Below the pieces are notes generated by a model that saw nothing but the letters and a program-made list of their open reading frames with translations, was not told the origin of the DNA and did not search any database. From the NCBI GenBank assembly GCA_046497275.1, contig JAWOFX010000173.1, positions 1 to 8,419 on the forward strand: 8,419 nt of DNA, in the 5' to 3' direction. Of the stretch, positions 495-6,494 are shown one piece after another. The position numbers were made by a program, and so were the translations under genes. The stretch comes from Promethearchaeia archaeon. GTDB lineage: Archaea > Asgardarchaeota > Lokiarchaeia > Sigyniarchaeales > SOKP01. Numbering within the stretch: position 1 is the stretch's first letter; every line of letters begins with the position of its first letter.

Positions 495-1364
495 ATGATA
501 GATTTAAAATTAGCTGAAATCATTGGAATTGCTTTAGGAGATGGAAGTATCCCTAGAAATAAATCAAGAATAAGAATCACCTTAAATAAATCCGAAGAAC
601 CCCAATATACTCGAAAAGTATATAAATTATTATTCGATGTTTTAGGAAAAAAACCAACTATATATGAACCAAAAGATGCAAATGCAATCAAATTAACTGT
701 ATCGGGTAAAACAATTGTAGAAAAATTGATTAAAAAGGGACTTCAACCTGGTGATAAAAAAGTTAATCAAGTGAAAGTTCCTGATTGGATAAAAATGAAT
801 AATAATTTTGTTAAGAATTGTCTAAGAGGATTAACAGATACCGACGGATCTATTCATGTACATAAATCATATAAAAGGATTCGTGTTGGTTTTAAGAATG
901 CCTCAAAACCATTAATGAAAGATTTCAAGGAAATGTGCGAAATTCTCAATATTCAAACAGGAAGTATTTTTCCTTCAAAGGGGCAAGATACTTATCAACT
1001 GCATATAGAGAGTAAAAAACAAGTCGTCAAATTTATTAATAAAGTCGAACCAAGAAAATGGGCTTATAGAGCTGAAACAATCGGATTAGTTTTAATTTCA
1101 ATCAAAGAATCTCGAAAATGGAGGAAAGTTAAAACTGAATTATTAAAACAATATCCATATGGAAAAGTCCATTATGATAAAGATTACAAGAATTATATAA
1201 AGTATTTATGTAAAAAAAATTGTTATGATATTAGTAGTGAAGCTATAAAATTAGAACTTCTTTATGCTTTAACCTATAGAGATAATTGCAAGGGAATCTC
1301 TAAGAAAATAATAGAAGAAAATAATCAGTTAGCTAAAACAATTATTAATAAGCTAAAATTTTAA
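495..1364 (+). CDS. Free-standing double-motif LAGLIDADG (DOD) homing-endonuclease-like protein, 289 aa
   Basis: Motif 1 LAEIIGIALGDGSI (aa 6-19) and motif 2 CLRGLTDTDGSI (aa 109-120) each keep the acidic residue before G. The GDKK...VPDWI linker is typical of intein-type DOD endonucleases. There are no intein splicing termini (no N-terminal Cys/Ser, no C-terminal HN). Confidence 0.9.
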   Translation: MIDLKLAEIIGIALGDGSIPRNKSRIRITLNKSEEPQYTRKVYKLLFDVLGKKPTIYEPKDANAIKLTVSGKTIVEKLIKKGLQPGDKKVNQVKVPDWIKMNNNFVKNCLRGLTDTDGSIHVHKSYKRIRVGFKNASKPLMKDFKEMCEILNIQTGSIFPSKGQDTYQLHIESKKQVVKFINKVEPRKWAYRAETIGLVLISIKESRKWRKVKTELLKQYPYGKVHYDKDYKNYIKYLCKKNCYDISSEAIKLELLYALTYRDNCKGISKKIIEENNQLAKTIINKLKF

Positions 1365-1381
1365 TATGCCAAGGGTGGGAT

Positions 1382-1411
1382 TTGTTCCAATTAGAATAAG
1401 TTTCTAATTCA
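1382..1411 (-). other. tRNA-Phe intron 3, T-loop position 58/59, 30 nt
   Basis: TGAATTAGAAACTTATTCTAATTGGAACAA. Perfect central helix GTTC/GAAC, bulges AA|T and AA|A, and an 8-bp internal hairpin AATTAGAA/TTCTAATT. Removal restores T-loop TTCAAAT. Confidence 0.92.
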
Positions 1412-1439
1412 TTGAACCCACGATGCCCAGATCTTCAGT

Positions 1440-1468
1440 TTCACCATATCTCAAGTTTTCGAGACATA
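1440..1468 (-). other. tRNA-Phe intron 2, anticodon stem position 30/31, 29 nt
   Basis: TATGTCTCGAAAACTTGAGATATGGTGAA. Perfect central helix CACC/GGTG, bulges AG|T and AA|A, and a 9-bp internal hairpin ATGTCTCGA/TTGAGATAT with two G-U pairs. Confidence 0.92.
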
Positions 1469-1479
1469 CTGGTGCGTTC

Positions 1480-1509
1480 TTACCCATAATTGGGTAATCC
1501 AAGAGTATT
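1480..1509 (-). other. tRNA-Phe intron 1, D-loop position 19/20, 30 nt
   Basis: AATACTCTTGGATTACCCAATTATGGGTAA. Central helix GCCC/GGGT, bulges GG|A and AA|G, internal ATA/TAT and TTGG/CCAA pairs. Removal restores the archaeal Phe-type D-loop AGCCCGGGA. The outer junction has an A-A mismatch (relaxed BHB). Confidence 0.85.
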
Positions 1510-1750
1510 CCGGGCTACGCCACCTTGGCAACGTTGTTTTATCTTATTTAGTGTATCTTAGATATTCATTTCTTATAAATAAGATATCTTTTAAAATCAA
1601 GAATATGTTATAAATTTTTTTGGTAGATATGATGGTCCTTTGAGCATTAATTTTTAATAAAATTTCAACCTTTTTTATATTCAATTGTGTTCTAAAACTA
1701 ATTATTGGACTCAAATTGTTTATTATATATTAAAAAATAGTATCTTTACA

Positions 1751-4265: not shown

Positions 4266-4442
4266 TAATAGTCAAACTAAGAATGTATTTATTTAATTTG
4301 TTTTGATGAGATAATTTTCATTGAACTATCATCATAATGATTTCTTATTTTATTATTATTGCTTATAAGTAGTAAGGTAAGTTCTTAATTTTAATTATAA
4401 ATTGAGGTAAATTTGAATAAAGAATCATTGAGAACATAAAAG

Positions 4443-4542
4443 TGCGCCCGCCGGGATTCGAACCCGGGTCGCTGGCTTGGAAGGCCAGAATACTACCATT
4501 TTACAATGAAAGAAAATCTTTCAATTTCTATACAACGAGCGC
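4443..4542 (-). tRNA. tRNA-Gly: tRNA-Gly(TCC) with one D-loop intron; exons 4542-4527 and 4499-4443
   Basis: Joined exons read GCGCTCG TT GTAT AGAATGGTA GTAT T CTGGC CTTCCAA GCCAG CGAC CCGGG TTCGAAT CCCGG CGGGCGC A (73 nt). Anticodon TCC is at 4481-4479. CCA is not encoded. Confidence 0.93.
4500..4526 (-). other. tRNA-Gly intron, about position 16/17, 27 nt (boundary slightly ambiguous because of A-runs)
   Basis: AATTGAAAGATTTTCTTTCATTGTAAA. Internal hairpin TGAAAGA/TCTTTCA, central helix TATA/TGTA, bulges GA|A and AA|A. Confidence 0.75.
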
Positions 4543-5457: not shown

Positions 5458-6132
5458 TTAAATTATATTAAACATAATTTCATAGAAAGTTATTACTCTG
5501 CTTACAATTATCCAAGCAAAAAGAGATTCTTTAGCTATTGATATAAGATTATCTGAGAGATCTAAGATATTATTAGAAAACGCAGCTTTTTGAAAGCCAC
5601 CGATTATTAGTGCATAATCCTTTGATATTCCTCGTTCATATAAATGCTTAAATGATTTAATTTGTTTTCCTTGTTCTGATAAGATTATTTTTTCTTTATC
5701 TTCAAATTCGGACAATTTTTCGTTCAGTGATTTGGAGACAGGCGCGATGAGAAATTCTTTCTCAGTTTTAATCCCATCATCTATAAGCAATTTGGCCATT
5801 AATCCCTTAAATCTATTAAAATTCTTAGTTATCCGAATTTTTGGATTAAACTCAAATAATCGGTTTTTTACAGTATGAACAAATATTCTTAATTGTCCAG
5901 ATTTATTTAGTGGAGAGCCTAAAGCATTTAGTAAGCAGAGATGCACTATGTCAGGTCTTCCACGCTTATTATGATTTTTTAGGCGCCTCATCGCGGAGTG
6001 ATGGAGAGCATTATCTAATAATTGGGAATAATAATTATTCATAGACAAATTTCTTTTCACTGCTGGATGACTTCGTATCCGCTTTGGGATCAATTCCAAT
6101 CCGCACTCAACTAAAAAAATTGTAAGCGTCAT
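5458..6132 (-). CDS. nep1: Nep1/Emg1 SSU rRNA pseudouridine N1-methyltransferase (SPOUT)
   Basis: Motifs KRGRPDIVHLCLL, GSPLNKSG, RITKNFNRFKGLM and IIGGF. ATG 6132 (MTLTIFLVECGLELIP) resembles typical Nep1 N-termini, so it is preferred to the ORF-track TTG at 6159. Confidence 0.92.
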   Translation of the reverse strand: MTLTIFLVECGLELIPKRIRSHPAVKRNLSMNNYYSQLLDNALHHSAMRRLKNHNKRGRPDIVHLCLLNALGSPLNKSGQLRIFVHTVKNRLFEFNPKIRITKNFNRFKGLMAKLLIDDGIKTEKEFLIAPVSKSLNEKLSEFEDKEKIILSEQGKQIKSFKHLYERGISKDYALIIGGFQKAAFSNNILDLSDNLISIAKESLFAWIIVSRVITFYEIMFNII

Positions 6133-6161
6133 GAATAATAAGATAATTAGGATATTCAAGA

Positions 6162-6494
6162 TTATATATTTTGGTTCTTGGTATGAATGAAATATCTCGT
6201 TTGATGATTACATTCTAGACATGTAACTGTGAGATGAGAAGCTTTTCCTTTTCTTGATTGGAGTCTAACCCGGCAATTGATTCCTGGATAAAGGAATCTT
6301 TTGCATTTATGACAAATTCTATGCTTCCATTCTTTAGGGATTTTAATTTTAGCACGTTGGGCATATCTCATAGCCAAGTCAGCATAGTGATTAGCACGTT
6401 CACTATTTTCAGGGAAAACCTCATTTGCTAAATGAAAGAGATAGAGCATCCGACTTTTTGCGATTTTTTGTGCAATTCCTTTAAAATTTGTCAT
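6162..6494 (-). CDS. rnp4: Ribonuclease P protein component 4 (Rpp21)
   Basis: N-terminal helices (IAKSRMLYLFHLA...A.RYA.RA) followed by the zinc ribbon CHKC...CLEC with RICHKCKRFLYPG and RVRL. Confidence 0.93.
   Translation of the reverse strand: MTNFKGIAQKIAKSRMLYLFHLANEVFPENSERANHYADLAMRYAQRAKIKIPKEWKHRICHKCKRFLYPGINCRVRLQSRKGKASHLTVTCLECNHQTRYFIHTKNQNI

Follow-up and report, generated by a model that had tools for sequence, protein, structure and literature searches.

The window analysed here is a stretch of 8,419 nucleotides that makes up an entire contig (C122) of an archaeal assembly of 3.85 Mb (188 contigs, 30% GC, estimated completeness of 98.9%), and the host can be assigned to the Asgard archaea of the former Lokiarchaeota. 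The minus strand of the window carries a gene for tRNA-Phe(GAA), whose precursor we parsed against the cloverleaf. The parsing gave four exons of 20, 11, 28, and 15 nt, adding up to 74 nt, and three introns of 30, 29, and 30 nt, adding up to 89 nt, with the introns located in the D-loop (19/20), the anticodon stem (30/31), and the T-loop (58/59) (Table 1). This reproduces exactly the original prediction, in which three introns at these positions made up 89 of 163 nt, and, as also predicted, the parse places no intron at the canonical position 37/38. CCA is not encoded in the gene, and a T-run is found ∼10 nt beyond its 3' end.

Table 1. Positions in the window of the tRNA-Phe(GAA) gene, its parts, and neighbouring features
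Feature	Position	Strand	Content
Whole pre-tRNA-Phe(GAA) gene	1367..1529	-	163 nt
Exon 1	1510..1529	-	acceptor 5' strand, U8 G9, D-stem 5' strand, D-loop through G19
Intron 1	1480..1509	-	30 nt, 19/20
Exon 2	1469..1479	-	G20-G30: D-loop end, D-stem 3' strand, position 26, anticodon stem 27-30
Intron 2	1440..1468	-	29 nt, 30/31
Exon 3	1412..1439	-	A31, anticodon loop CUGAAGA, anticodon stem 3' strand, variable loop, T-stem 5' strand, T-loop through A58
Intron 3	1382..1411	-	30 nt, 58/59, T-loop
Exon 4	1367..1381	-	A59 U60, T-stem 3' strand, acceptor 3' strand, discriminator A73
LAGLIDADG two-motif homing-endonuclease-like ORF, intact-looking	495-1364	+	289 aa; ends 3 nt from tRNA-Phe 3' end
tRNA-Gly(UCC) gene	4442-4542	-	27-nt D-loop intron at 4500-4526
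Nep1/EMG1 methyltransferase gene adjoining that of RNase P subunit Rpr2/Rpp21	5458-6494	-	

When the three introns are removed, ARAGORN reads the 74-nt product as tRNA-Phe(gaa) and draws a full cloverleaf whose 21 stem pairs are without exception Watson-Crick, in keeping with the full pairing that had been claimed for the spliced form. The stems are 7, 4, 5, and 5 bp long, both the anticodon loop and the T-loop have 7 nt, and none of the conserved bases U8, A14, G18 G19, A21, U33, G53-C61, T54 T55 C56, and A58 is missing. G20, G37, and A73 are all present in the spliced tRNA. In yeast and archaeal tRNA-Phe, G20 and A73 are identity elements for Phe, and G37 is the site of the wyosine-type modification. 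The D-stem GCGT/ACGC, which had been described as covarying, is indeed complementary, but it is invariant in all the relatives and therefore provides no covariation.

The unspliced precursor was not recognized by ARAGORN with or without its intron mode, and the Rfam tRNA model (RF00005) was blind to the locus at the gathering score, in a whole-genome search at E<=1, and in a search of 301 nt at E<=10. The suspicion that standard callers would miss this gene is therefore borne out by ARAGORN and by the Rfam covariance model, in the latter case down to the most permissive of these thresholds. With the same Rfam model, single-intron orthologues gave partial matches of 31 to 38 bits, and two intron-free orthologues from the sister family scored 61.2 and 60.6 bits. 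We aligned the mature sequence, allowing for splicing, to the whole genome and obtained a single locus with a score of 131, the next best matches, at 65, being other tRNAs. A search for a second tRNA-Phe had been proposed as a check on the prediction, and none was found in the assembly. Two other candidates were rejected along the way: the "Phe" (aaa) called by ARAGORN at C59:81738 is a tRNA-Arg(GCG) with one intron, and at C69:109563 a tRNA-Gln(UUG) fits the locus better than the "gaa" reading does.

The window contains a second hidden tRNA gene, that of tRNA-Gly(UCC), which was missed by ARAGORN and gave with Rfam a partial match (model positions 10-63, 39.8 bits) in which the 3' end of the intron wrongly takes the place of one D-stem strand. 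A few kilobases from both tRNA genes, the gene for the methyltransferase Nep1/EMG1 adjoins that of the RNase P subunit Rpr2/Rpp21, and this pair is followed by the genes for ribosomal proteins S19e and L31e.

The strand was also scanned for bulge-helix-bulge (BHB) motifs without using the cloverleaf, on the basis of a 4-bp central helix (exon positions -6 to -3 paired with intron positions n-5 to n-2), bulges of 3 nt, and helices flanking them. Within the gene, the three highest scores (29, 27, and 26) belong to the three introns, at the same offsets that the cloverleaf had given. The central helices are 4/4 paired in all three introns with 3-nt bulges on either side, so the scan agrees independently with the proposal that each intron forms a 4-bp exon-intron central helix flanked by 3-nt bulges. 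In intron 1, the central helix is GCCC/GGGU, the bulges are GG↓A and AA↓G, and the outer exon helix is the D stem, which lies beyond an A14.A21 mismatch next to the bulge. In intron 2, CACC pairs with GGUG between bulges AG↓U and AA↓A, the inner hairpin is long, and the outer exon helix amounts to just 1 bp, which makes the motif of the relaxed HBh' type. Intron 3 pairs GUUC with GAAC between bulges AA↓U and AA↓A, with an 8-bp inner hairpin beyond a G.G mismatch and with the outer helix h in a shifted register. The product would be identical if the third splice site lay at 56/57 or 57/58 instead of 58/59, but a full BHB is formed only at 58/59. With the mismatch in intron 1, which has both flanking helices, the single base pair in intron 2, and the shifted helix in intron 3, the three introns fit relaxed BHB forms (HBh') and not the strict hBHBh' form.

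Compared with shuffled sequences, the precursor has a much more favourable fold (z = -5.4). The acceptor and T stems are present in its minimum-free-energy structure, as are the intron 2 motif and the intron 3 hairpin. The intron 1 motif does not appear in the minimum-free-energy fold of the whole precursor, which we do not count against splicing since alternative folds are to be expected when one precursor holds three introns. The D and anticodon stems are in competition with the intron 2 motif, and some refolding or an ordered splicing must therefore be assumed. A search inside the introns for C/D-box or other RNA families gave none, and the fully spliced junction sequence was sought in metagenome contigs and not found, a result that is uninformative either way.

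We compared the gene with tRNA-Phe orthologues from 43 genomes of the same family, this one included (loci L003-L032 and L046-L070), after correcting three orthologue boundaries by eye (L008, L012, and L029). All of these genes are interrupted, with one intron in 15 genomes, two in 14, three in 10, and four in 4. Three-intron tRNAs had been described as rare, and for the tRNA-Phe of this family that is not the case. The introns occupy eight or more positions overall, namely, 19/20 (25 of the 43), 30/31 (19), 59/60 (17), 51/52 to 53/54 (10), 15/16 (8), 22/23 (4), 58/59 (4), and 37/38 (2). That such interruptions might prove routine in the lineage had been foreseen in the original prediction as lowering its novelty only. 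The D-arm introns (15/16, 19/20, and 22/23) are mutually exclusive, with at most one per gene among the 43 orthologues. In two genomes the canonical 37/38 intron is the sole intron of tRNA-Phe, and five genomes within one genus present five different intron sets. While the number of introns in the family ranges from one to four and is never zero, the genes of the sister family are often intact: three of the six tRNA-Phe genes examined there are uninterrupted and collinear with our spliced product. Relative to this intron-free sister-family tRNA-Phe, the gene described here carries three inserts of 29 to 30 nt (multi-intron tRNA genes of Asgard archaea being defined by at least two inserts of at least 10 nt against compact relatives with the same anticodon).

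Relatives that lack an individual intron act as a natural splicing control. The 19/20 intron is absent in L015 and L018, the 30/31 intron in L016 and L024-L026, and any T-loop intron in L010, L016, L018, and L024-L026, and in every case the junction is exactly the one predicted here, so that, at the level of the aligned genes, the relatives confirm every exon junction. These junctions bear on the possibility that the gene is real and at least one insert is not removed by EndA at the proposed sites, either being retained as an expanded loop or being cut at shifted positions to leave a different T-loop. Such a reading would fit the weak outer exon helix of intron 2 and the register of the outer helix of intron 3, and some Asgard inserts have been described as lacking a canonical motif and as possibly not being introns (Goswami et al., bioRxiv 10.64898/2026.10.13.758758). 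However, the three central helices are complete and their bulges symmetric, the shifted alternatives score worse, with a 59/60 reading of intron 3 breaking the central helix, and a 30-nt insert in the T-loop or in the anticodon stem is incompatible with a working tRNA. Together with the exact junctions in the relatives, this makes retention or shifted cutting very improbable, and we keep to the removal of all three introns at the sites in Table 1.

The exons are conserved to a degree that speaks for function. From the first search, 29 of 30 spliced orthologues were called as tRNA-Phe(gaa), and the 15 different mature sequences show pairing in 314 of 315 stem cells, with compensatory changes in 6 of the 21 pairs. 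The covariation lies in the acceptor, anticodon, and T stems, and almost all variation falls in the stems or the variable loop, a pattern from which the exons are judged to be under strong purifying selection. The splice motifs are likewise conserved, the central helix of intron 1 being invariant in the 21 family members tabulated and that at 30/31 being paired in 17 of 17. The interiors of the introns have drifted apart in sequence as well as in length, with compensatory substitutions in the inner helix, which covaries in intron 1. A decaying pseudogene, whose inserts would be junk and whose working counterpart would lie elsewhere, for example in unassembled DNA, could hide from ARAGORN and the Rfam model just as this locus does, and in a draft of 188 contigs a second tRNA-Phe is possible outside the assembled part. 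Against this, the 98.9%-complete assembly contains no other Phe-like locus, the exons have no defect, the gene is interrupted in 43 of 43 family members and syntenic where checked, and the variation among orthologues consists almost wholly of compensatory stem changes, which are unexpected in a pseudogene. We therefore give this explanation hardly any credence and uphold the claim of a functional gene, which is the sole tRNA-Phe found in the assembly.

That the contig is a contaminant or a chimera foreign to the genome can be dismissed as negligible, given that, despite an estimated contamination of 4.4% and a contig of just 8.4 kb, its GC content is 29% against 30% for the genome, the gene with its introns 1 and 2 is 89 to 94% identical to those of same-family genomes, and the arrangement from Nep1 to tRNA-Phe recurs in a Promethearchaeota MAG, the nearest named relative. 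In that MAG, Nep1 is 73% identical and tRNA-Phe lies equally distant from it, with one intron at 15/16.

To see how such introns might be removed, we looked at the splicing enzymes, the subunit architecture of EndA having been suggested as a further check. The genome has two genes with an EndA domain (PF01974), at C46:30059-30664 and C168:8025-8627, encoding proteins of 201 and 200 aa. The first protein is closest to the catalytic alpha subunit of Aeropyrum pernix (3P1Z_B, E = 3e-38), keeps the Tyr/His/Lys triad, and aligns without gaps over the Crenarchaea-specific loop, where SKPR stands opposite EKPR (K44-P45-R46) of A. pernix. K44 and R46 of this loop confer broad substrate specificity, including the cleavage of D-loop introns (PMC3241643). 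The second paralogue has Val at the position of the catalytic His of M. jannaschii EndA and is predicted to be non-catalytic, as expected of a structural subunit. One catalytic paralogue and one without the catalytic His match the (alpha-beta)2 EndA with an L1 loop published for Asgard archaea (PMC5829648). The expectation that relaxed motifs need a broad-specificity endonuclease agrees with the 1-bp outer helix of intron 2 and with a predicted (alpha-beta)2-type EndA that has the equivalents of K44 and R46. Two full-length genes for the ligase RtcB are also found in the genome.

Taken together, the minus-strand locus is, with high confidence, the single functional tRNA-Phe(GAA) gene found in the assembly, with three BHB introns predicted to be spliced by EndA to give a standard 74-nt product. 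We infer that the precursor is transcribed, cleaved, and ligated as follows. For every intron, its 3' end would pair with four bases of the preceding exon, those just before the final two, forming the 4-bp central helix of a BHB with two 3-nt bulges flanking it. An EndA of the heterotetramer type, in which the alpha subunit is catalytic and bears the broad-specificity loop and the beta subunit is non-catalytic, would cut both bulges, RtcB would join the exons, and CCA would be added afterwards. The end product would be a standard tRNA that reads both Phe codons.

Heavily interrupted tRNA genes in Asgard archaea are an already described kind (Valentin-Alvarado 2024; Goswami 2026 preprint). Introns are present in 92 to 95% of the tRNA genes of three complete Asgard genomes, often at non-canonical positions and often several per gene (PMC11291895), and the survey of 90 Asgard genomes by Goswami et al. 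(bioRxiv 10.64898/2026.10.13.758758) found that tRNAscan-SE misses ∼30% of the inserts, mainly in the D-arm, in the three most intron-rich families. A three-insert tRNA-Phe(GAA) from Atabeyarchaeia-1 is a worked example in the same survey, which also gives 0.91 introns per tRNA gene for "other Asgard families." The idea that multi-intron tRNAs may be under-reported in this lineage is thus outdated insofar as the under-reporting in Asgard archaea has already been published in these two studies. Like the gene described here, the published Asgard genes have several introns of ∼20 to 30 nt at non-canonical positions, often in the D-arm or T-arm, with BHB motifs and two EndA paralogues, and are partly or wholly invisible to standard callers. 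The published papers centre on Atabeyarchaeia and on Freyr- and Jordiarchaeaceae, and the text of the preprint does not name Lokiarchaeia or Promethearchaeia. The Lokiarchaeia-type family of our gene has a lower overall burden, ∼0.9 introns per detected tRNA gene in a rough census, which is similar to the 0.91 of the preprint.

Outside the Asgard archaea, 30/31 and nearby T-loop positions have long been known in Crenarchaeota (PMC4090602). In Thermoproteales, up to three BHB introns per gene are found at non-canonical positions, 30/31 and the T-loop included, as in tRNA-Pro(UGG) of Pyrobaculum islandicum (25/26, 37/38, and 56/57; Sugahara 2007/2008, cited in PMC4090602), and their splicing depends on an (alpha-beta)2 EndA with the Crenarchaea-specific loop, as is predicted here. 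They differ in belonging to another phylum and in that many of their introns are near-identical transposed copies, whereas here none of the three introns has a significant copy elsewhere in the genome; the P. islandicum gene also has the canonical 37/38 intron that our tRNA-Phe lacks. The D-loop BHB intron of pre-tRNA-Thr from A. pernix has been biochemically proven to need K44 and R46 of the Crenarchaea-specific loop (Hirata et al. 2011, PMC3241643). The alpha subunit encoded in our genome retains the equivalents of both residues, but A. pernix is a crenarchaeon with one intron per gene whose splicing was shown experimentally, while splicing in the system described here is predicted from sequence. 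Two to three introns with BHB-like motifs in the D and T arms also occur in Cyanidioschyzon merolae and in cryptophyte nucleomorphs (PMC3728597; PMC4090602), but in these eukaryotic genomes, nuclear or nucleomorph, the enzymes are of the TSEN kind and some introns are much shorter.

The T-arm sets this gene apart from its nearest relatives. Introns 1 and 2 are shared at 89 to 94% identity with the two closest genomes, of which one belongs to the same genus, yet the T-arm introns of these relatives lie at 51/52 and 59/60, whereas here there is a single, unrelated intron at 58/59. The sequence of intron 3 has no homologue in any of the 4 of 43 family members with an intron at this position. Compared with L004, L005, and L006, the 5' 109 nt, including two introns, are 86 to 94% identical, and the T-stem (window 1382-1439) is GUGGG/CCCAC here versus GAGGG/CCCUC in the three relatives. 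These differences point to a recent replacement or turnover of the 3' part of the gene.

The LAGLIDADG ORF is located on this same side, occupying ∼1.1 kb between tRNA-Phe and a conserved neighbour gene where five relatives have a gap of ∼60 to 125 nt. The ORF is single-copy in the genome, and a homologue that is 54% identical occupies this position in L017 (G025, from another genus), alone among the loci that we fetched. A repair event triggered by the endonuclease, with co-conversion of the flanking DNA, could have swapped the 3' part of the tRNA gene, intron included, and this would amount to very recent intron turnover driven by a mobile element. We consider this scenario unlikely, and any connection between the LAGLIDADG insertion and the T-arm replacement is speculation. 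If true, it would provide a concrete route by which tRNA introns arrive or are exchanged, the central open problem of the 2026 preprint. With an integrated element in mind, we also searched for a displaced copy of the tRNA 3' exon and obtained only chance matches in coding sequence; the contig ends 1.4 kb downstream. When the three introns were compared by BLAST with the whole genome, there was no significant copy, only short AT-rich chance matches (best off-target E = 0.002). Matches of intron 3 in other genomes proved to be coding sequence or, in L039, another tRNA's T-loop intron, whose ends are under the same constraint. Neither the search of the genome nor these matches give evidence of intron copying or mobility.

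We also took a census of the tRNA genes in the genome by removing BHB motifs and then running ARAGORN, and the resulting numbers are rough. Greedy removal across the whole genome yielded few extra tRNAs, and a region-limited exhaustive version performed better. About 40 tRNA loci were obtained, with ∼12 uninterrupted, ∼21 with one intron, ∼6 with two, and only Phe with three, which is therefore the most interrupted gene detected in the genome, against a rough average of ∼0.9 introns per detected gene. ARAGORN, Rfam, and BHB removal all failed to recover at least nine of the anticodons expected, namely, Asn, Tyr, Trp, Glu-UUC, Gly-CCC, Arg-CCG, Ser-GCU, Thr-UGU, and further CAU genes, so the true intron burden is above the census count, and further hidden, heavily interrupted tRNA genes probably remain in the genome. 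Two calls of tRNA-SeC(UCA), at C33:11-133 and C165:59-181, both of 94 nt in ARAGORN once a 29-nt BHB candidate is removed, lie at contig ends and may represent one intron-bearing selenocysteine tRNA gene duplicated at an assembly break.

Phe codons account for 5.3% of the codons in long open frames, and every one of them seems to rely on a tRNA that becomes functional only after six cuts and three ligations. Since the sole tRNA-Phe found requires splicing, EndA and the ligase would be essential for translation in this organism. Automated pipelines built on ARAGORN and the Rfam model, neither of which sees the gene, would report a genome without tRNA-Phe, and the warning that the genome may look as if it lacks this tRNA holds for such pipelines. 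The comparison of 43 family members constitutes a compact data set on intron gain and loss that bears on how tRNA introns arrive in Asgard archaea. The main use of the finding is the correction of the annotation, together with one data point on intron turnover.
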